Shown here: positions 3,329 through 29,057 of the stretch, in pieces
Layout: each line of letters starts with the position of its first letter
Position numbering within the stretch: the first letter of the stretch is position 1
Assembly: GCF_050563455.1 (NCBI RefSeq)
Contig: NZ_CP191777.1
Coordinates: forward strand, 3,603,845 to 3,635,844
DNA length: 32,000 nucleotides
Origin: Crocosphaera watsonii WH 8501
Lineage (GTDB): Bacteria; Cyanobacteriota; Cyanobacteriia; Cyanobacteriales; Microcystaceae
Reading direction: 5' to 3'
The notes under the pieces: generated by a model
Told to the model about the DNA's origin: nothing
The model's database searches: none
The model's input: only the letters and a program-made list of their open reading frames with translations
Made by a program: the position numbers and the translations under genes

Positions 3329-3629
3329 TATTTTTAATTTTTTCTCTGACTAAAGAAGGCGTTTTAGCTTGCATTTCCCTAGTAAAAATTTCATCATCTT
3401 CAATATCTTTTCTAATTTCTTCTAGATGATCATGATAATAAGATAAAGCAGCATAAACATCAGCTAAAGTGATGCTTGGATAGTGATAAACAATTTCATC
3501 AGGAGACATTCCCATCCTTTCATGCCAAATTACCACATCTTGTACTTTAATACGATGTCCAGCAATACGAGGTTTCCCCCCACATACCCCTGGTGTAATT
3601 TCAATATGATTGATTATTATTGGTGTCAT
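3309..3629 (-). CDS. DUF433 domain protein (putative antitoxin partner)
   Basis: ITPGVCGGKPRIAGHRIKVQDVVIWHERMGMSPDEIVYHYPSITLADVYAALSYY matches the DUF433 signature (CGGKP-I-G-RI-V..V). It overlaps the downstream PIN-like gene. Confidence 0.65.
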   Translation of the reverse strand: MTPIIINHIEITPGVCGGKPRIAGHRIKVQDVVIWHERMGMSPDEIVYHYPSITLADVYAALSYYHDHLEEIRKDIEDDEIFTREMQAKTPSLVREKIKNIDERKD

Positions 3630-7146: not shown

Positions 7147-7272
7147 TATTTTTCCTCAAAATTGAATGAATAAAATTGATAGTAAGTCAAATGTTTTGAT
7201 TAACTTACTATCCCGGAATTTGCACAATTCAAGTTTAGTTAATTAGAAGGTTGCTACAGTTTTAAAGAAAAT

Positions 7273-7306
7273 GAGTTTGATAAAATCTCTGACAATTATC
7301 AAACTC
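7273..7306 (-). terminator. intrinsic-terminator-like hairpin after the small ORF
   Basis: GAGTTTGATAA (7273-7283) pairs with TTATCAAACTC (7296-7306). On the minus strand it starts 11 nt after the small-ORF stop and is followed by AUUUUCUUUAAAA. Confidence 0.4.
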
Positions 7307-7317
7307 TCAAAAGACTT

Positions 7318-7398
7318 TTAGCGTCCAAGTTGACCAATAGAATGGTTAATATGATTAGCACGATTAGTTAAAGTTTGACTAGGCTTTGCGAGTGCCAT
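7318..7398 (-). CDS. 26-aa small ORF (MALAKPSQTLTNRANHINHSIGQLGR), speculative
   Basis: Hand-translated. Same strand as the radical-SAM remnant and ~170 nt upstream of it, with its own hairpin. No recognisable RBS and no homology evidence. Confidence 0.2.
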   Translation of the reverse strand: MALAKPSQTLTNRANHINHSIGQLGR

Positions 7399-7629
7399 TA
7401 TTAGACATTTTTGTTAACCTATAAGTAGTTTATTTTTGCAAGGGCTAATCCTTATGTTAAAGCAGTTGAAACTCCTAGTAAGTGTTGTGTTGTACTTAAG
7501 CTTTAAGGCATAAGCCCTTGTTTTGTTATTAAACATATTAACCAACTCTTTAAGGGGATGTCAGTCCCAAATTTGAAGAAATTTTTTTTATTTTTAATTC
7601 TATTTAAGTAGATAAAAGTAGAAATAAAT

Positions 7630-16856: not shown

Positions 16857-19328
16857 ATGTTTGAACGCTTTACAGAAAAAGCCATCAAGGTAATAATGCT
16901 GGCGCAAGAGGAAGCTCGTCGCCTCGGGCATAACTTCGTCGGGACAGAACAAATTCTTCTTGGCCTCATCGGTGAAGGTACCGGAGTCGCCGCCAAAGTT
17001 CTCAAATCAATGGGGGTTAACCTCAAAGACGCTCGCATTGAAGTTGAGAAAATCATTGGTCGGGGTTCAGGTTTCGTCGCTGTGGAAATTCCTTTTACCC
17101 CAAGAGCAAAACGAGTGCTGGAACTCTCCTTAGAGGAAGCCAGACAGTTAGGACACAACTATATCGGTACTGAACACCTTCTCTTAGGTCTAATTAGAGA
17201 AGGGGAAGGGGTGGCCGCTAGGGTTCTCGAAAACCTCGGTGTTAACCTCTCCAAAGTCAGAACCCAAGTTATTCGTCAGTTAGGTGAAACCGCAGAGGTT
17301 GCCGCCGGTGGTGGTACACCAGGACGCACAAAAACCCCCACTCTCGATGAATTCGGTTCCAACTTAACCCAGTTAGCCGGTGAGGGTCAACTCGACCCCG
17401 TAGTTGGACGACAAAAAGAAATCGAGCGTGTGATCCAAATTCTCGGTCGTCGTACCAAAAATAACCCCGTTCTCATCGGTGAACCCGGTGTGGGTAAAAC
17501 AGCGATCGCAGAAGGGTTAGCTCAACGCATCGCTAACAAAGATATTCCCGACATTCTCGAAGAAAAACGAGTCGTTACCCTCGATATCGGTTTATTGGTC
17601 GCCGGAACCAAATACCGTGGGGAATTTGAAGAACGTCTCAAGAAAATTATGGACGAAATTCGTCAAGCTGGAAACGTTATCCTAGTTATTGACGAAGTTC
17701 ATACCCTCATCGGTGCTGGTGCTGCTGAAGGGGCCATCGACGCTGCTAATATCCTCAAACCTGCTCTAGCACGGGGCGAATTACAATGTATTGGGGCAAC
17801 CACCCTCGATGAGTACCGTAAGCACATCGAACGGGATGCAGCCCTAGAACGTCGTTTCCAACCCGTAATGGTGGGTGAACCCTCCGTTGATGAAACCGTA
17901 GAAATTCTCTTTGGACTACGGGAACGCTACGAGCAGCATCATAAGCTAAAAATCTTAGATGAAGCTTTAGATGCAGCAGCGAAACTTTCTGATCGCTATA
18001 TTTCTGACCGTTATCTTCCTGATAAGGCCATCGATCTTATCGATGAAGCAGGATCACGGGTTCGCTTAATTAACTCTCAACTGCCTCCTGCGGCCAAGGA
18101 ATTAGACAAAGAACTACGCACTATCTTGAAGCAAAAAGATGACGCAGTTCGCTCCCAAGACTTCGATCGCGCTGGAGAATTGCGGGATCAAGAAATGGAT
18201 ATTAAAGAGCAAATTCGCTCTATTTCCACCGCTAAGAAAGGAGAAGGAGACAGCGCAGAACCCTTTGTGGATGCTGAAGAAATCGCCCAAATCGTGGCTT
18301 CTTGGACTGGTGTTCCTGTGAACAAGTTGACGGAAACAGAATCCGAAAAACTTCTCCACATGGAAGATACTTTACATCAACGCTTGATCGGTCAAGAGGA
18401 CGCAGTTAAAGCTGTTTCTCGGGCTATTCGTCGGGCAAGAGTAGGCTTAAAGAACCCCAACCGTCCTATTGCTAGTTTCGTCTTCTCTGGACCTACTGGT
18501 GTGGGTAAAACCGAGTTAACCAAGTCCTTAGCAGCGTACTTCTTCGGGTCAGAAGAAGCCATGATTCGTCTGGATATGTCCGAATACATGGAACGTCATA
18601 CGGTTTCTAAGTTGATCGGTTCTCCTCCAGGATATGTGGGTTATAACGAAGGGGGACAACTCACGGAAGCTGTTCGTCGTCGTCCCTATACCGTTGTTTT
18701 ATTCGATGAAATCGAAAAAGCACACCCCGATGTCTTCAATATGCTGCTACAAATCTTAGAAGACGGTCGTTTAACCGACGCTAAGGGACGTACAGTGGAC
18801 TTTAAGAACACCTTATTAATCATGACCTCTAACATCGGTTCCAAGGTCATTGAGAAGGGTGGCGGTGGCCTCGGATTTGAGTTTGAAGACGACCAAAATG
18901 AGGCACAGTACAACCGTATACGTAACCTAGTTAACGAAGAATTGAAGCAATACTTCAGACCTGAGTTCCTCAACCGTTTAGATGAGATTATCGTCTTCCG
19001 TCAGTTGAACAAAGAAGAAGTCAAGGAGATTTCCGAAATTCTTCTCAAGGAAGTATTTGCACGTTTAACCGAGAAAGAGATTACTCTACAAGTTACCGAT
19101 AAATTCAAGGAACGCTTGGTAGAAGAAGGGTATAACCCTGCTTACGGTGCAAGGCCGTTACGTCGTGCTATTATGCGTCTCTTAGAGGATGTCTTAGCAG
19201 AGGAAATTCTTTCCGGACGAGTTGGCGAAGGCGATGTCGCTGTAGTTGATATCGGCGAAGATGGCAAAGTTCAAGTGGTTTCTAATGAGAAACAACAACC
19301 AGTTTTAGCTAAAGCTACCGACTCGTAA
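16857..19328 (+). CDS. clpC: ATP-dependent Clp protease ATP-binding subunit ClpC
   Basis: Duplicated Clp_N repeats ([37 protein letters not shown]...), two AAA+ modules (GEPGVGKT and GPTGVGKT) and a UVR-like linker. 823 aa. Confidence 0.95.
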
Positions 19329-19351: not shown

Positions 19352-19386
19352 AACGGTAGAAGTTTCACTCTTCTGCCGTTTTTTCT
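19352..19386 (+). terminator. rho-independent terminator of clpC
   Basis: AACGGTAGAAG-tttcact-CTTCTGCCGTT (one G-U pair) followed by TTTTTC, 24 nt after the clpC stop. Confidence 0.7.
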
Positions 19387-19418
19387 TGAATAGAGTAGTA
19401 AATAATTACCACAAAACT

Positions 19419-21059
19419 ATGGATTCTATTCGACTACAAAGATTACGTTGTTTATCAGATACCGGGGAAATTAAAATTAAACCCATTACGATACTTGTGG
19501 GAGAAAATAGTTCAGGGAAAAGTACCTTTTTGCGTTTCTTTCCTTTACTTAAGCAAAGTGTTGAGTCTAGAACCATTGGACCGGTTTTATGGAATGGTCG
19601 ATTAGTGGATTTCGGCAACTATAAAGATGCTCATCAAAAGCATTCTGAAGAGGATATTTGTTTAGAGTTTAAATTTGAAATTCCTTCCTTTCCAAAAAAT
19701 AATGCTTAAAAAAAAAATACAGACGAAGAAATAATATTCTGGTCAAGTAGAAGACCATTAATATTTAATCCCATTGATGTTTCTGTTATTTTACAGCTTT
19801 TAGAAGAGAAAAAACAACAGATTACTATAATACATAAATTGATCATAAAATTTGCCGATTCTGTAATTCAACTTGAAATAAACAAAGAGAATAAAATCTC
19901 TTGCTTTTTAGTAAATTCCTTTGATATTTTAGAAATGTTAGGTGATAAATATATTTTGTTTGATTTGGGTCATAAATTTATGTTACCGCAAGTAAGAGAA
20001 TTTTCAAATAATCAAGAGAAAATTCTCAACTTAGGAGTTTTGAACAGAGTCAATAGAACAAGATTTATTTTTCAACAATTATTCAGTAAACTTTTTCAAA
20101 TAACAAAAAATAAAGCCCATAAGTTTACATCAGAAACTACTATTTTCAAAATGATATCTTCATTTGTCATTGGAGATTCAGCAACTATGCTTCAAGATAT
20201 TAAAAATAATCCTTTTTCTACCAAAACTTGGAAGAAAAGCGTAAACTCATGGACAATAGAATCTAATGAATTTAGGCAATTTAGAGATTTAATTATCGCT
20301 AACTCAGTACCTTGGTTACTAGAAGAATGTGATGATTTATTAGCTAATTTTGCTACTAAAATTAGTTATATGGGTCCAGTTAGAGCAACAGCAGAGCGTT
20401 ACTATAGAACACAAGATTTAGCAGTAGATGAGGTAGATTATCAGGGAACTAATTTACCAATGTTTCTCCGAAATTTAACACATGGAGAATTGAAAGAATT
20501 TAGGACTTGGACACTTAATAATTTTGGTTTTGAACCTCTAATCACAACAAGTCAAGGATTAATTTCTTTAGAAATACGACCTTCTAAAGATTCTAAAGAA
20601 TCTTTTAATGTTGCTGATACAGGATTTGGTTTTTCTCAAATTTTGCCTATTATTACTCAGTTATGGTTTCTGAGTGAGTTTACTAAGACTTCTTCAAGAA
20701 TTCGTCCTCCTGGTTTCCGATATAATAGTCCTGTTATTTTCCCTATTGAACAGCCTGAATTACATTTACATCCCCGTTTACAAGGAGTTTTAGCTGAAGT
20801 ATTTGTTAAATCAATTGAAGCAGCAAAAGAAAGAGGGATTGATTTACGTTTAGTCATTGAAACCCATAGCGAAGTTCTAATTAATAAATTAGGATATCTG
20901 GTTGCAGAAAAACACATTTTACCAGAAGATATTAATATAGTATTATTTTATAAATCTGATCAATCTAAAGAAATAAAAGTCAGGACAAGTCAATTTGATT
21001 CTGAGGGTTATTTAAGCGAAGATTGGCCATTAGGATTTTTTGATATGGATCTTATTTAA
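19419..21059 (+). pseudogene. ABC/SMC-type AAA ATPase (AriA-like; AAA_15/21-type with WP-GFF C-terminus) carrying one in-frame TAA
   Basis: Track ORFs 19386-19709 and 19839-21059 are in the same frame. My translation of 19710-19838 is stop-free, so TAA 19707-19709 (followed by A-run 19708-19717) is the only interruption of a 546-codon gene. Walker A is LVGENSSGKST. The distal motifs are YMGPVRA, ADTGFGFSQILPII, IEQPELHLHP (Walker B-like), ETHSEVL and DWPLGFFD. The likely start is ATG 19419. Confidence 0.7.
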
Positions 21060-21060
21060 T

Positions 21061-22196
21061 ATGTTGATTAAAATTGATGTTTCTGTTGTCCAGAGTTTTG
21101 AAAATTCTAATTCATGGCCAGATGATCTTATTATAGCTCTTGAAAATTTAGCACTTGCAAGACGTGAAGGCAAACATTCAATAATTGCAGATTTAAACAC
21201 TTTAAAAATAATTGCAAAATGTTCAGACTTATCTAAAAATGCCAAAATTTCTTATAAAAAAATATTAAATGACAGACCTAAATTTAAAGCTTATCTTTCC
21301 CATGTCTCTAGATATATTGAAATTATTCATCCTTGTAATGTTAATAAAATAGATTCTAATTCAGGAAAAGATATTATTAAATTACCTTACACTTTTTTCA
21401 ATGATTCAGAAACAATACAAAAATCTATACTGTTGTGTAAAAATTTACAAGATACTGAATTTTATAAAATAATCGCTGAAACTTTTTGTAAATGGAAACG
21501 ATTAAATATTAAACCAAAATTTGAACCATCCTTAGGAGGAGGAAATACAATATCAACTGTATATGAGAATATTCAAAATAAGAAAAAAAGATTGTGTCTA
21601 TGTATTGTTGATAGTGATAAGTTATCTCCTAATAGTAGTCTAGGTTCTACAGCTAGAAATATTAAACAAAAAGATGATAATACTTCCGTTACGACGCTAC
21701 TTTATATTTTACCCGTTCGTGAACTTGAAAACTTAATCCCTCTTTCAATTTTATCTGAACTTATGTCTAAAAATGGAGATAGAGAAAACCCTTTTAAACA
21801 ATTAGAAAAAATTGAAGAAAGTTCAGTAAAAGAAATACGAAATTTTTTAGATATCAAAGAAGGAACAAGACTAAAAAAATAGTTAATGAACCGAGTTCAG
21901 TCAAAGATTTTTGGAAAGATAAACTTGATAAACTGCCAAATTATTCCAATGATATTGATGAATGGTGTTATGAAAATTGGTCGTGTTGTGATCCTGATCC
22001 TAAGAAAAAATCATGTAAGTGTAAGATTTCATTAGGTTTTGGTCAAAAAATCCTAGAAAATACAATTACTTATCTCAATACTCAATCTTCATTTACAATT
22101 CCTTCTATGGTTGAAGAGTCTTTACATTCTGAATGGAAAAATATTGGACAACTTATGCTAAATTGGGGCTTCGCAGATTCTCCAATTCGTGTTTAA
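21061..22196 (+). pseudogene. Toprim/DUF4435-like putative effector (AriB-like), frameshifted at an A7 run
   Basis: ATG 21061 follows the ATPase stop by 1 nt. The frame ends at TAG 21880-21882. The +1-shifted frame is open from 21879 to TAA 22194-22196 (IVNEPSSVKDFWKDKL...GFADSPIRV*). A8 instead of A7 (21873-21879) would give one 378-aa protein. Motif order: LLCKNLQDTEFYKII - GGGNTIS - LCLCIVDSDK - LPVRELENLIP. Confidence 0.5.
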
Positions 22197-22335: not shown

Positions 22336-22462
22336 ATTGCACAAGATGCTTAAGGGAGAGAGACTAAACTCTCCAACCTTACCCACTACTTGAGATGTTT
22401 ATTCAGCATCTCTTCTAACTGTTGTTTGGTGATCGCTCCTTCCTGTTTGGCCAATAGTCCTT
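22336..22462 (-). repeat. displaced copy of the thioredoxin 3' end plus downstream hairpin (direct repeat A)
   Basis: By my manual alignment, about nine-tenths identical to 26426-26553. The minus strand reads GLLAKQEGAITKQQLEEMLNKHLK*, against ELLAKHEGAITRPQLEEMLNKHLK* in the intact gene. Confidence 0.85.
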
Positions 22463-22853
22463 TTTAACAATTAACAATGGTCATTCCGAGGTACGAGGAA
22501 TCTCCTTAACTTCTTGATCATTATAGGTTTTTGTTATCTTCTATAATTGTTGATTAAGTGCTTTAACTAATAAATGTACTGTGGTTGATGGATTATCTTG
22601 ACCAGGATTAGATTTATGATATTGTTTCAGTAACTTTTCAGAATTTCTAATAGCAGTTTCTTGTCTATCCAATAACTCATCATAGATAGTATCACTATTT
22701 TTTGTGTACTGTTTACCTAATAATGTATTTAACTTCTTCAGGTACTCTTTTCGAGGAATAGGTGAATTTAAAAACTCAAAGTGTAAGACATACCATAACT
22801 CAAAAGCTTCGTTAGAATAAGCAACCTCAAATCCCTGCTTTTCAGCCTTATTT

Positions 22854-24546
22854 AGGGTTTGCTGAAAAAGTTTCTCCAAAATTTATGCCACTTTTGACCA
22901 AGAATTTTCTGACAAATCAATAAGTTTTAGTACATAAAAATTGTTTAAAGTATAATCAAAATTAATGAAAGGCGGTTTGATGAGTTCCCCTGTTCTATTA
23001 TTAGTAAATAAGGACAAAAAAAGCGACAAAAACTGCCTCAGAAGTTTACAAAGATTGACAACTAAAAATGTAATAGCAATAGATGTAATGGAGGTTTCAG
23101 GGAGTTTTGTCATCACGAGATTTAGGCTAAATCTTCGTTTAGCTTGTCCAAACTTTCCCTCAATAGCATTACGGAAGCATTCATCGGAGTGGGCTTGTTT
23201 CTTTTCTTCTTCACTGACATTTTTCGGAGGTCTTCCTAACTTCGGACCACTGATTCTTATCCCTCTTTCCTTACACCAATTTCTGTTTTCCCTAGTTCGA
23301 TAAATTTTATCTACATGGACGGATTCGGGATAATAGCCAAACGTTTCTTTATACTTTTCTACTTGTTCTTTTAAATGACAAGATTCATTGAAGTTTTCCC
23401 AACTTATTTTTTCTAGAAACACATAGTTATCTACACAGCTTACTGAGAGTTTAGCTCCAAACTCTATTGGTTTTCCTGCTTTTCCCCTCACTATTGGACG
23501 AATATGCGGTTGAGTTAAACTTACAATTCTTTGAGGAACACTCTGGGTCTTATTCTCCCACATTGACTGTTGTTGTTCATAAACTTTTTTGATAGTCTCT
23601 AGACAATTTTTCTGTCTTTTACTCAGATTTTCCAGGGAAGCCCCAGCTTGAATTAAGTCTTCTATATTTCCTAAATTTTTCTTAAGGTATTTTAACTGTT
23701 TCCCGATAGCTTTTCTTCTTTCTTGATAAGATACTTTTCGTTTTTTAGCTACTTTTAAGTATTCCTTTCTAGCAATTTTTCTAGAAGTTCTCGGCTTTTT
23801 TCTCAATTTTACTCTTAATGGTTTATAAAGATTATCTATTATTCTTTCTGTCTCAATTCTGGCTTGATTTAATATGCCTAAATCCGTTGGGTATTTGATG
23901 TCTGCTGGCGCACAAGTCGCATCTAAAATTAGTTTACCTTTATTTTTTATTTTTTCTCCTTTTTCTTGGAGACAATCCTTTTTTTTTACTTCTTTATCAC
24001 TCTTGTCTATTTCTCTTTTTACTATTTTTTTATTGATTTTGTTTATCAATTCTCCATCAATTCTTTTCCTAAAATGAACTAGCATTGAAGATTCCAGTGG
24101 TGGCTCTTGTTGATAACAATTTAAACCTATAAAGTATTGTAGATAAGGATTTTCTCTAATCTGTTCTATAGTTTCTCTATCACTTGTTCCTAATTTTTCC
24201 TTAATAATTAATGTCCCTAATGCCATTCTAAATAGTTTGGCTGGCGCACCTTTTTCTGCTGAAAAAAGTTTAGCATATTCTTCCTCAAAATCATCCCAAG
24301 GTATCAACTCTGCCATGATTACCCAACGATTATTGGGGGACAATTTGCCCTCGAAAGGTAATTCAAATTTTTCTGGGGGCGGTAAAGGTTGCTCCTCTTT
24401 TCGATACATTTGTTCTTGACCAACAACTGGGAGGTGTTTCTACCAATTATAGCGGTTTGTAGCCGACAAAGCTGATCTTTTTTGCGATCGCGAATATGGG
24501 TGTAACCTTTTAAAGAATAGGGTTTTGCTTTTATTCAGCAAACCCT
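22854..24546 (-). mobile_element. 1693-bp IS element, copy 3 (inverted), TSD ATTT
   Basis: IRs at 22854-22866 and 24534-24546. Direct ATTT at 22850-22853 and 24547-24550. Confidence 0.9.
22883..24409 (-). CDS. IS transposase, 508 aa (copy 3)
   Basis: Intact ORF. Four residue differences from copy 2 (D/E, L/W, S/C, C/Y). Confidence 0.85.
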   Translation of the reverse strand: MYRKEEQPLPPPEKFELPFEGKLSPNNRWVIMAELIPWDDFEEEYAKLFSAEKGAPAKLFRMALGTLIIKEKLGTSDRETIEQIRENPYLQYFIGLNCYQQEPPLESSMLVHFRKRIDGELINKINKKIVKREIDKSDKEVKKKDCLQEKGEKIKNKGKLILDATCAPADIKYPTDLGILNQARIETERIIDNLYKPLRVKLRKKPRTSRKIARKEYLKVAKKRKVSYQERRKAIGKQLKYLKKNLGNIEDLIQAGASLENLSKRQKNCLETIKKVYEQQQSMWENKTQSVPQRIVSLTQPHIRPIVRGKAGKPIEFGAKLSVSCVDNYVFLEKISWENFNESCHLKEQVEKYKETFGYYPESVHVDKIYRTRENRNWCKERGIRISGPKLGRPPKNVSEEEKKQAHSDECFRNAIEGKFGQAKRRFSLNLVMTKLPETSITSIAITFLVVNLCKLLRQFLSLFLSLFTNNRTGELIKPPFINFDYTLNNFYVLKLIDLSENSWSKVA

Positions 24547-24801
24547 ATTTATTGTACTGTTAAAGTTTTGAAAATTATCTTTATCAAAAACACACCAAAC
24601 TTGATCATAGTCATCTTCTTTTTTATATTCAATTGTTTTATTTACTAAGATATCAGGATCTTTGTTCAATCCTTTAACTTTTATAACCTTACGAGGAACA
24701 CGAAAACACTCAAAGTAGTTTTTTCTGTTTCTTCTCCTCCACAAACAATTAAAAATAGTTGTTTAGGCTCTCTTGTGTTTTTCTTTCGACTTGAATATCC
24801 T

Positions 24802-26106
24802 CTAGGATTTCTCTCTGTTTTCGCCATTAGAATTAATTAGTGTAGTTAAATCTCCAATATAGGGTATTGCACCATATCGACCTTTGATGTAATCATTTTC
24901 AAAGGCAGCATCATCACTAATTTTATATTCTACTAAAGAATATAAATCACTTGCACCATATCTATCTTTTTCAGTAAACCAGATTTGATCCCTACGAAAA
25001 AGTTTAGGACTGAGTAAGTTTGTGTCATGAGTCATCACAATTAGTTGACCATTATTAGGGTTGGTTTCATTAGAGTTAAACAATTCAATAATAGTACGAC
25101 TAATTAAAGGATGTAATCTTGCATCAAATTCATCAATTACCAAAGTTTGACTATTTTTTAAAGTATCAAAAAGTGGTCCAGCTAAAGCAAAAGCTTTCTG
25201 CGTACCCTCGGATTCATCTTCTGTAAAATCAAAGGTTTCAGTAGAGATAAACTTATTCTCAGAATCAAATTTACGATGTTTGGTTGTAATCAAAGTTCCT
25301 TTTCCTCCTGAGTCTCTAAGTATCATTTTTCTAAATTCTTGAGGTAAATCATCAGAAAGTTGATCTTCAGTAACTTCTATTTGAGTAACGTTAATGTCAT
25401 CAATTCCTAAATCTAGCTTTTTAATTAAGTTGATGATTTCGTTTTTATTTTCATTCTCCATTAAACACTTTACTGTAAAAGAACGATAAGAAGAATCATT
25501 TAAACCAGAAATCACCTGTAATGAATTAGTTAACCAGTTAAGAATATCTTCCGCAATTTTAATATTAAACTGAGCAGATACAGATAAGAAAAGAGCATTA
25601 TCTCTTGTCAGTTTTTCAACTCCATTTGCTTGATATCTCTTAATAGTGTTTATTTGACCTTCTTTTCTCTCAAAAAGCTTGCTTTCCCTAACATTGGGAA
25701 TGTAATATAACCATTCTGAGACAATTTTTTTTGTAGTTGCTTCAAACCCGTAACGATATTTAATCCCATCCAATAAAAAAACAATTTCAAAGAAAGAAGG
25801 ATTATTCTCAGTTTCAAGACTCAATCTAAAAGGTTCTATGTCTATATCATCTGTGCTTTGAGTCTGTCTAGATGAATTAATCATAAACCATTTCATAAAA
25901 GCTAAAGCTTTAATGAGATTACTTTTTCCACTAGCATTTGCATCATAAATAGCAGCACTTTTGAGCAATTTTAAATCATCATCAACAGCAAAAAGATTAT
26001 CATTATGAATAGTATTATTATCAGCAGTAAGATCGGCCGCTACCATACTAAAAGTAACAACATCTTTAAATGATCTATAATTTCCTACACTGAATTCAAT
26101 TAACAT
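24802..26106 (-). CDS. AAA_21-type ATPase (RloA/AbiLi-like)
   Basis: 434 aa. MLIEFSVGNYRSFKD..., Walker A DANASGKSN, Walker B LVIDEFDARLHP and H-loop MTHDTNLL. Its 3' end overlaps the RloB-like start by 26 nt. Confidence 0.75.
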   Translation of the reverse strand: MLIEFSVGNYRSFKDVVTFSMVAADLTADNNTIHNDNLFAVDDDLKLLKSAAIYDANASGKSNLIKALAFMKWFMINSSRQTQSTDDIDIEPFRLSLETENNPSFFEIVFLLDGIKYRYGFEATTKKIVSEWLYYIPNVRESKLFERKEGQINTIKRYQANGVEKLTRDNALFLSVSAQFNIKIAEDILNWLTNSLQVISGLNDSSYRSFTVKCLMENENKNEIINLIKKLDLGIDDINVTQIEVTEDQLSDDLPQEFRKMILRDSGGKGTLITTKHRKFDSENKFISTETFDFTEDESEGTQKAFALAGPLFDTLKNSQTLVIDEFDARLHPLISRTIIELFNSNETNPNNGQLIVMTHDTNLLSPKLFRRDQIWFTEKDRYGASDLYSLVEYKISDDAAFENDYIKGRYGAIPYIGDLTTLINSNGENREKS

Positions 26107-26425
26107 TAAGTAAGTTTTTGCTATCTAATAAGACTAGAAAGACAAGAGCAATTTCCTCGCTTAAGCATAACAGACAATGGACGCTTTAATACAATCAATC
26201 TGTGCTTAAGTTCATTAAACCATGATAAATAAGACTTGCACCTTGAAATTTATGATAATACCAATTTCTTAAAGTAGGGGTTAACGCTTTGACTGCGCTC
26301 AGCGTTAAACCCTGCAATATAAAGTTATGTAGTCTAAGGTTATTTCTGATAAAAGAGATTCCTTATGTAGATGCTAAATAAGACTAAAATACGACTCTAA
26401 ACTGTAGTTCAAAAGCTTAAACTGT

Positions 26426-26553
26426 ATTGTACAAAATGCTTAAGGGGGAGAGATTGAACTCTCCAACCTTACCCACTACTTGAGATGTTTATTAAGCATC
26501 TCTTCTAACTGTGGTCTGGTGATCGCTCCTTCGTGTTTGGCCAATAGTTCCTT
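26426..26553 (-). repeat. thioredoxin 3' end plus downstream hairpin (direct repeat B, part of the intact gene)
   Basis: Partner of 22336-22462, in the same orientation, 4090 bp away. Confidence 0.85.
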
Positions 26554-26865: not shown

Positions 26866-27639
26866 TTAGAGATTATCCAGTTGACGGCGTAAGTCATCTA
26901 ATTCTGCATCAACTGCACTATCTTTAGGAGTCGCTTTATCCTCAGTTGATCCTTCTGGTAAAGCGGCTTTTGGTTCAGCAGATCCCGTCATTTGGGCTTT
27001 CAGCATAGCCAGTTCATCTTCTACACCGCTTCCGGCTTCCAGTTCAGCAAATTGATTTTCTAGACTCGATCCCCCTATTTCTCCTACTGCTTGGGAACGG
27101 GCTTCCATATCTAAGACCTTGTTTTCCATGCGCTCAAAAGCAGCCATAGAACCACTGGTATTCAGACCACTCATGGTTGATTGTAGTGCTTCGTTAGCCT
27201 TAGCAGCCTTAGCCCTAGAAACGAGCATATCTTTCTTGGTCTTAGCCTCAGCAATTTTGCTTTCTAAGGCCGTTAAATTACGGCGCATGGTTTCAATTTG
27301 AGCATTTTGCTGATCCAATTGTTCCTTGAGGGTGGTGGCGGTGTCTGTGAAAGATTTTTTCCGAACTAAGGCTTCTCTAGCTAGAGTTTCCTCTCCTTTG
27401 GATAGAGCTAATTTTGCCCGTTGTTCCCAGCTATTAGCTTCTTGGAGAGCTTTTGTGTATTGTCCTTCGGTTCGTTTTTGAGAACCCATAGTTTGGGCAA
27501 AAGCTTGTTTTAACTCGATCAAGTCTTTGCCCATATCCTCAATGGTTTGTTCTAAGATTTTTTCAGGATCTTCTGCTTTGCTAACAAGATCGTTGAGGTT
27601 GGCTCTGACAACTCGGCCTAGGCGATCAAATAATCCCAT
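26866..27639 (-). CDS. vipp1: Vipp1 / IM30 (PspA family)
   Basis: MGLFDRLGRVVRANLNDLVSKAEDPEKILEQ... is the PspA/IM30 N-terminus. The C-terminal extension ending AVDAELDDLRRQLDNL is characteristic of Vipp1 rather than PspA (recollection of the Synechocystis protein). Confidence 0.85.
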   Translation of the reverse strand: MGLFDRLGRVVRANLNDLVSKAEDPEKILEQTIEDMGKDLIELKQAFAQTMGSQKRTEGQYTKALQEANSWEQRAKLALSKGEETLAREALVRKKSFTDTATTLKEQLDQQNAQIETMRRNLTALESKIAEAKTKKDMLVSRAKAAKANEALQSTMSGLNTSGSMAAFERMENKVLDMEARSQAVGEIGGSSLENQFAELEAGSGVEDELAMLKAQMTGSAEPKAALPEGSTEDKATPKDSAVDAELDDLRRQLDNL

Positions 27640-27818: not shown

Positions 27819-29057
27819 TCAAGCCTTTACTAACTTGATAAACTTCTTTTTACCCACTTGTAAAACTTTACCTGAGAGTTGTTCTGATTGCTCAAAGGTT
27901 ATATTAACATCGGTAATTTTTTCTCCGTCTAAACGAACTGCACCCCCTTGTATTTGTCGTCTGCCGTCCCCACTACTTCCACAGAGTCCACTGGCACTTA
28001 AAATGTAGAATAATTTAGCCGGAAATTCTACTTTTGATAAGTCATATTCGGGTACAGCATCCGTTGCACCAGTGCCTTTATTTTTTACTAAATCTTCGGC
28101 GGTTTTTTGTGCAGTTACGGCTGCTTGTTTGCCGTGAAATTGTGAGACAATTTCTAGGGCTAATAACTTTTGAGATTCACGAGGGTTTTCTGGCAATTCC
28201 TCTAAGGGTAAATTGGTTAAGAGTTCAAAATATTCTTTAATAATAGCATCGGGGGTTTTTTCTAGTTTAGAATACATTGATAACTCATCTTCTTTTAATC
28301 CCACGTAGTTATTGAGAGATTTTGACATTTTTTGGCTGCCATCTGTACCTCGTAAAATTGGTAATAATAATCCAAACTGAGGTTTCTTGCCAAAGTGTCT
28401 TTGTAAGTCTCTACCAACGGCAATATTAAACTTTTGATCCGTTCCACCTAATTCTACATCGGCATCGATCATCACCGAGTCATATCCCTGCATTAAGGGG
28501 TAGAGAAATTCGTGGAGAAAAATAGGATTTTCTTGTTTATAACGTTCAGCGAATCCCTCTTTAGCCAACATTTGTCCTACGGTCATAGTGGCTAAAAGTT
28601 CTTGAATTTTTGCTAAGTTTAGCTCACTTAACCATTCAGAATTATAACGAATTTCTAATCTTCCTGGTGTTTCAAAATCTAAGATAGGACGTAGTTGCTC
28701 TAAATAACTTTCGGCGTTTTTTCTCACAGCTTCAGAAGTCAATTGTTTACGAACTTCTGACTTACCAGTGGGATCACCAATTTGTGCGGTAAAATCTCCG
28801 ATAATGACCACTGCAGTATGACCAGCATCTTGAAACCCCCGTAACTTACGAAAAGGGATACTATGACCTAGATGAATATCGGTTCCAGTGGGATCAATTC
28901 CTAATTTAATCCTCAAAGGACGATGGCATTTTTCTATCAATTTCTCTAAGTTTTCTTCGGGGTTATTCGATTCAGGTTGACTGGGAAATATCTCGCTGGT
29001 TCCTCGATATAACCAATTGAAAGAGTCAGGAATCATGACTGATGACATGGTAGACAA
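27819..29057 (-). CDS. tyrS: tyrosine--tRNA ligase
   Basis: HIGH-type motif (DIHLGH), a KMSKS motif (QKMSKS) and a C-terminal S4-like domain ([25 protein letters not shown]). Confidence 0.9.

Follow-up and report, generated by a model that had tools for sequence, protein, structure and literature searches.

The chromosome of the cyanobacterium Crocosphaera watsonii WH 8501 carries a two-gene AbiL module, an ABC-type ATPase gene (AbiLi) overlapping a RloB-type gene (AbiLii), which is bracketed by two direct copies of the 3′ end of the neighboring thioredoxin gene (trx). The module lies in a 32,000-nucleotide (nt) stretch of contig NZ_CP191777.1 (positions 3,603,845 to 3,635,844 of assembly GCF_050563455.1), called the window here, and positions below are those of the window. 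The arrangement goes back to one old event in which a discrete AbiL cassette was inserted and a 128-nt duplication of the trx 3′ region was left behind; the way in which cassette and chromosome were joined we infer. The locus was singled out by a prediction made from the letters of the window alone (the original prediction), parts of which have to be revised.

The direct repeat

Each copy of the repeat is 128 nt long (Table 1). The copies are 91% identical when aligned without gaps and 92% identical with one gap, close to the same-orientation repeats of about 127 bp and nine-tenths identity that had been claimed, and their longest perfectly matching run is 37 nt. On the inner side weak homology continues for about 8 nt beyond the 128 nt, with an indel, and the inner boundary of the left copy is abrupt. 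A search of the whole genome (6.28 Mb) returned these two copies only, the second with E = 6.6e-47. Their starts are 4090 bp apart, or 2393 bp once an insertion sequence (IS) of 1691 bp and its 6-bp target duplication are subtracted; the predicted interval of 4.09 kb, or 2.39 kb without the IS, was thus correct.

The right copy is the functional end of trx and extends past the stop codon into a conserved stem-loop (UAAGG..GGAGAG/CUCUCC..CCUUA). The repeat had been described as the last 24 codons of trx, the stop codon and a hairpin; the stop codon and the stem-loop stand, and the codon count rises by one, to 25. The left copy translates as KGLLAKQEGAITKQQLEEMLNKHLK followed by a stop codon. 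Because stop codons also precede it just upstream and a start codon is absent, the left copy is a dead fragment, so that a complete trx gene adjoins the right copy only, as originally stated. The stem-loop was considered as a canonical intrinsic terminator, but a terminator scan gave no flag and we call it terminator-like only. There is no tRNA or tmRNA gene in the window, and an Rfam search of the repeat gave no match.

Relationship of the two copies

The two copies have in common several substitutions and a 3-nt deletion that are absent from all 12 relatives compared, and they are 92% alike to each other vs. 78–82% to the nearest species. Seven of the differences between them could be polarized with outgroups, five being derived in the relic and two in the functional copy. 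Three of the four coding differences are non-synonymous, and a His codon that is invariant in the 12 relatives has become Gln in the relic. Along the repeat, the polarized differences reveal no single switch point, a signal that gene conversion could blur. These comparisons fit the view that the copies are each other's closest relatives, in other words that the lineage's own sequence was duplicated and that the unconstrained copy then decayed faster. The original prediction had taken the divergence of the two 3′ ends to mean different origins, a conclusion that their private shared changes do not support.

Among 40 relatives, the only other duplication of a trx end is in a congener (G007; L044:10684-11061), where 51 nt of the same C-terminal helix region are duplicated in tandem and in frame, so that thioredoxin is 125 amino acids (aa) long. 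The first unit of this duplication has the Gln-for-His change and Lys changes in common with the C. watsonii relic. The tandem duplication may be the footprint of an earlier event at the trx site.

Reality and age of the arrangement

The duplicated trx end is a real, fixed and old feature of C. watsonii. Its right junction is present in several Logan contigs and its left junction in the NCBI draft of WH8501 (GCA_000167195.1) and in a TARA scaffold. Identity to the window is 99.6–99.9% in nine metagenome contigs, one from JGI (L096) and eight from ENA (L202-L209). In the eight ENA contigs, both copies of the repeat equal those of the window exactly, save for one single-nucleotide polymorphism in the relic of L209; L096, as compared, stops short of the right copy and covers the relic alone. 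An assembly artefact, which the original prediction had named as a possible refutation, is ruled out by the recurrence of both junctions across independent assemblies. Since the arrangement is fixed and the copies are nearly invariant across nine metagenome contigs, the insertion must be old. A related clpC-trx site empty of AbiL had been proposed as a check; in the available C. watsonii sequences, reached by look-ups of exact proteins, by cluster variants and by a pattern scan of metagenomes, every site was occupied.

It should be noted that the closed genome and the WH8501 draft (L064; AADV02000002.1) disagree on the DNA beyond the far side of the IS, where the draft has an acetyltransferase gene and further IS elements. 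This mismatch reflects either misassembly of the draft through the IS or an IS-mediated rearrangement.

The inserted module and its movement

The interval between the repeats was predicted to contain just an ATPase/RloB pair besides the IS, and this is so except for one small palindromic element. The latter has at least 40 partial matches across the genome and belongs to a GTAGGG...CCCTAC family. The AbiLi-type ABC ATPase gene adjoins RloB/AbiLii in one operon, the arrangement that defines AbiL. The pair is a candidate phage-defense cassette, a chromosomal version of AbiL from a cyanobacterium. In WH 8501 AbiLii is doubly broken. One lesion is the IS, which is flanked by a 6-bp target duplication (TATTTA at 22849-22854 and 24546-24551) and has two further copies in the window; the other is a poly-A frameshift in the 5′ part, read after the IS flanks had been joined in silico. 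The ocean contigs L096 (1341-1931) and L202-L209 (9976-10566) carry an intact AbiLii of 196 aa, with neither IS nor frameshift, together with an intact AbiLi. Since the intact allele is found in the ocean contigs, both lesions are specific to the cultured lineage and recent.

The AbiL insert lacks the marks of a transposon insertion: it has no terminal inverted repeats and no transposase of its own, and the duplication is 128 nt long instead of short and of fixed length.

Homologs of AbiLi are present in 114 of 401 genomes of the order, where the best matches, in other families, reach 67% aa identity. A broader scan found homologs with 80–81% aa identity in three Crocosphaera metagenome-assembled genomes (MAGs). 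In three other species of the genus (G003, G010 and G013; L105-L107, L185-L187) the AbiL module is located directly behind psbD-psbC, that of G010 being split over two contigs. There is no AbiL behind psbC in C. watsonii. Nucleotide homology between C. watsonii and its congeners (85–86%) is confined to the two genes plus 95 nt ahead of AbiLi and about 16 nt past AbiLii. Because the module occupies the trx site in C. watsonii and the psbC site in the congeners, the two-gene unit has changed place within the genus. Since the module has diverged about as much as core genes have, a distant donor is not needed. The claim that AbiL arrived as an insertion is borne out: the repeats mark its edges, it sits in a variable island of low GC content, and it is found behind psbC in congeners. 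At both locations AbiL comes after a core gene that is highly expressed and has the same orientation. The downstream neighbors of AbiL are common to G007 and G003.

Origin of the duplication

As the best explanation we favor, tentatively, an in-situ duplication of the target by an illegitimate event that required no recombinase. A cassette of about 2.3 kb carrying AbiLi and AbiLii would have joined the chromosome at a point 75 nt ahead of the trx stop codon by an illegitimate copy-and-paste reaction, e.g., when replication switched templates or a staggered break was repaired. In the process a target segment of about 128–136 nt, comprising the stop codon with the 25 codons before it and the stem-loop downstream, would have been duplicated, giving the order trx, stem-loop, AbiLi, AbiLii, relic trx end, stem-loop and older island. 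The trx gene would have been kept intact and the AbiL cassette would have gained a stem-loop at its own 3′ end. As the proposed event copies the target itself, the copies would have been identical at first, and would since have drifted 8% apart, the unconstrained outer copy changing faster.

Several points weigh against this account. The polarizable differences are few (seven), and gene conversion could give repeats of unlike origin the look of sisters. Some ten tyrosine recombinase genes in the genome could act in trans. Neither an empty site nor a donor sequence was found for C. watsonii, and copy-and-paste needs the later loss of the former AbiL copy, e.g., one behind psbC. Finally, long target duplications at bacterial insertions are, to our knowledge, not well documented as a mechanism.

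The repeats could instead be the attL and attR of a site-specific element that targeted the trx 3′ end, brought a replacement for it, and whose integrase was lost or acts in trans, much as in a cis-mobilizable element (CIME) or a tycheposon that has degenerated. Elements residing in gene 3′ ends have exactly this geometry, with repeats that include the end of the target gene, and the newer cargo lies on the trx side with the older pushed outward, as in the serial integrations of Prochlorococcus (bioRxiv 10.1101/2020.12.28.424599). The original prediction likewise had the module come by site-specific insertion at trx; of this the insertion edges stand, while a site-specific integrase has found no positive indication. 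Pfam searches of all open reading frames found no recombinase in the interval, in line with what had been predicted, and neither the 2.3-kb insert nor the DNA up to 130 kb away has an integrase, whole or fragmentary. Elsewhere in the genome, where a cognate integrase was to be sought, there are 11 PF00589 matches, the nearest more than 270 kb away, and four PF00239 matches, the nearest more than 130 kb away. Recurrent use of trx as an attachment site is not supported either. None of the 40 relatives has a displaced trx end, and an nhmmer profile detected no older trx relics in the island or in the islands of relatives, except the 51-nt tandem duplication of G007. That the trx end travels with AbiL was ruled out for the 29 other AbiL loci scanned, none of which adjoins trx-like sequence; a further 80 AbiL loci lay outside that scan. 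Moreover, the copies look like sisters rather than one native and one foreign, and the AbiL modules behind psbC in congeners lack repeats of this kind. We consider a site-specific origin improbable.

Homologous recombination enters into two other schemes. In a Campbell-type single crossover, a circle with AbiL and a captured trx 3′ end would have recombined via RecA into the resident trx end, the donor being either a very closely related organism or, in a polyploid cell, a further copy of the chromosome, with repeats that already differed by a few per cent. Such an event needs no integrase and can give direct repeats of whatever length, the 37-nt perfect run is enough for homologous pairing, a closely related donor suits sister copies, and the repeat lengths at other AbiL loci do differ (see below). 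However, an earlier illegitimate event joining AbiL to the trx end in the donor would still be required, the polarized differences lack a single switch point, and no such circle or donor has been seen; we regard the scheme as unlikely. The relic could also have been imported with a clpC-side block (clpC, the PDC-M55-like module and the last 26 trx codons) from a relative with a clpC-island-trx layout, one end recombining in clpC and the other joining just downstream of the resident AbiL by homology-facilitated illegitimate recombination. The congener G008 proves that such a layout exists with other cargo, the relic sits exactly between both modules, and its inner boundary is abrupt, as import would have it. 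An end with 128 nt of homology should, however, usually recombine homologously and thereby replace AbiL, and no recombination tract was detected in clpC; we regard the import as very improbable.

Flank duplications at other AbiL loci

Bracketing repeats are also found at AbiL loci of other cyanobacteria, and the tally covers AbiL loci only. In a genome of another family (G078; L076:1353-1407, 3452-3505), AbiLi and AbiLii are bracketed by a direct repeat of 50–55 nt that is 89% identical and unique in the genome. A congener of that strain (G125; L101) has one copy of the repeat with matching flanks on both sides, i.e., an empty site. A second contig (C524) of the MAG G102 diverges in mid-repeat, suggesting that the slot holds other cargo there or varies between strains. 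A clean mosaic of native and foreign sequence in the G078 repeats was considered and dropped, as the G102 copy is itself mosaic and permits no inference.

In a MAG of Scytonematopsis contorta the repeat is 294 nt long and 80% identical (L140:3524-3817, 7236-7529). It takes in the final 240 nt of the DUF4351 gene upstream, together with the clear intrinsic terminator of that gene, and its second copy follows AbiLi, AbiLii and a DUF7453 gene. Of 25 paralogous matches, this second copy is the closest by far and the only one that spans the non-coding part. A perfect 173-nt repeat at another locus (L130) cuts RloB short in a MAG; as it may be a dispersed repeat or an error of assembly, it was left out of the count.

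The lengths and sequences of the repeats vary over the three cases (128 nt at trx, 50–55 nt with an empty site in G078, and 294 nt in Scytonematopsis), and this argues against an attachment site or a staggered cut that stays the same from case to case. It is conceivable, but doubtful, that these cases reflect a common route, free of a recombinase, by which AbiL-type cassettes spread by being pasted behind a gene with duplication of its end and terminator (25–300 nt). Under such a route, the upstream gene and the cassette would each keep a terminator.

The clpC-trx slot

Table 1. Annotated features of the slot and its borders (window positions)
Feature	Position	Strand	Remarks
clpC	16857..19328	+	Conserved left border of the variable slot
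Older PDC-M55/NsnB-like AAA_15 ATPase (split) and partner	19386..22196	+	Far side of relic copy; decayed
Left (outer) repeat copy	22336..22463	-	Displaced non-coding relic of trx 3′ end and stem-loop
AbiLii/RloB, 3′ part	22541..22854	-	PF13707, 2e-26; PADLOC AbiLii, 1e-10
IS, 1691 bp, inside AbiLii	22855..24545	-	DDE_Tnp_1_2 + DUF772 transposase
AbiLii/RloB, 5′ part	24546..24827	-	Start overlaps AbiLi stop; poly-A frameshift near 24715-24720
AbiLi ABC-type ATPase, intact, 434 aa	24802..26106	-	PADLOC AbiLi, 4e-105; PF13304
Small dispersed palindromic element, ~90 nt, resembling a miniature inverted-repeat transposable element	26250..26343		Between right copy and AbiLi
Right (inner) repeat copy	26426..26553	-	Functional trx 3′ end: 25 sense codons and stop (26476-26553), and 50 nt with conserved stem-loop
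Thioredoxin gene (trx), intact, 108 aa	26476..26802	-	PF00085, 9e-27
PspA/Vipp1 gene	26866..27639	-	
Tyrosyl-tRNA synthetase gene	27819..29057	-	

On its right, the slot is followed by genes that read, on the minus strand, in the order tyrosyl-tRNA synthetase, PspA/Vipp1 and thioredoxin. GC content is 23–34% across 19.6–26.4 kb of the window vs. 40–50% in clpC, trx and vipp1. In some ocean contigs an intact 546-aa ATPase takes the place of the split one of the older module, and in L202, L204, L205 and L208 a partner of 368/378 aa stands beside it. L202, L204 and L205 have about 173 extra nt near window 22109-22115.

Different cargo at the same site had been proposed as a further check on the insertion, and was found in one congener (G008), where clpC and trx flank 7 kb of unrelated genes; a second trx end is absent there. 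The cargo consists of a Piwi-domain prokaryotic Argonaute with a PD-(D/E)XK nuclease, BrnT/BrnA, HigB with an antitoxin, and a helix-turn-helix/M78 pair. On the clpC side, homology with this genome stops about 70 nt past the clpC stop codon. The slot therefore has the hallmark of a core defense hotspot, different defense cargo between clpC and trx, with the adjacency of these two genes in only two of the species sampled.

Other relatives have other layouts. In five congeners and one member of another genus, an aminotransferase gene directly follows trx (G004, G002, G011, G009, G013 and, in the other genus, G015). In the near-complete assembly of G004, clpC lies 3.3 Mb from trx on the same contig, and in the other five it is on a different contig from trx. 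Two more genomes (G001 and G005) have yet other trx neighbors, whose C. watsonii orthologs sit elsewhere in its genome. In all of them the conserved stretch breaks off at one point, give or take a few bases, about 45–50 nt past the trx stop codon and just beyond the stem-loop. Since conservation ends at one point and the neighbors differ, the 3′ side of trx is a synteny breakpoint in the genus, and in two species it is one border of a defense slot. At the trx 3′ region (window 26505-26512), several relatives (L035, L036 and L037) read GGCGATCGG, which is close to the cyanobacterial HIP1 palindrome, and C. watsonii reads GAGCGATCAC. To tie a HIP1-like sequence to recombination at the trx 3′ end is pure speculation.

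Comparison with known systems

In Streptococcus thermophilus, ICESt1 and ICESt3 insert at the 3′ end of fda, and CIMEs are their integrase-less derivatives. The trx locus resembles them in holding cargo between direct repeats that include a gene 3′ end, with the gene intact and a displaced partial copy at the far end. It differs in having no integrase, excisionase or transfer gene, in that the target has not been reused in relatives, and in that the copies look like sisters. Core defense hotspots between conserved genes are known from pan-genome studies of Pseudomonas aeruginosa and Escherichia coli. The likeness here lies in the different defense cargo held by clpC and trx in two species, the low GC content and the lack of mobility genes; the differences are that only two sampled species have the clpC-trx adjacency and that the trx 3′ side is a general synteny breakpoint.

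AbiL itself was described as an abortive-infection system of the Lactococcus lactis plasmid pND861. The two versions have in common an AAA_21/AbiLi ATPase with an overlapping RloB/AbiLii gene. The lactococcal version is on a plasmid, whereas that of C. watsonii is chromosomal, is known from its sequence, and has an AbiLii that is doubly broken.

Similar in setting are the tycheposon islands of Prochlorococcus, where serial insertions push older cargo outward and leave partial target copies between blocks (bioRxiv 10.1101/2020.12.28.424599). Both are islands of marine cyanobacteria with successive insertions at the same site and partial copies of the target gene between cargo. Tycheposons, however, insert at tRNA genes and carry tyrosine recombinases, complete or in fragments, whereas at the C. 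watsonii locus the target is trx and there is no trace of a recombinase.

Conclusions

Taken alone, the duplicated trx end is well documented, but as a scar of insertion in a variable defense slot it is modest and fairly ordinary. It illustrates that a small defense cassette without mobility genes can be added beside an essential, highly expressed gene without damaging it. The unit that moved within Crocosphaera is now delimited exactly: it begins 95 nt ahead of AbiLi and ends 16 nt past AbiLii. The cultured strain holds decayed versions of two defense modules, both of which are intact in some ocean populations. If flank duplication should prove general at AbiL cassettes, it would point to an undescribed route of defense-gene mobility.

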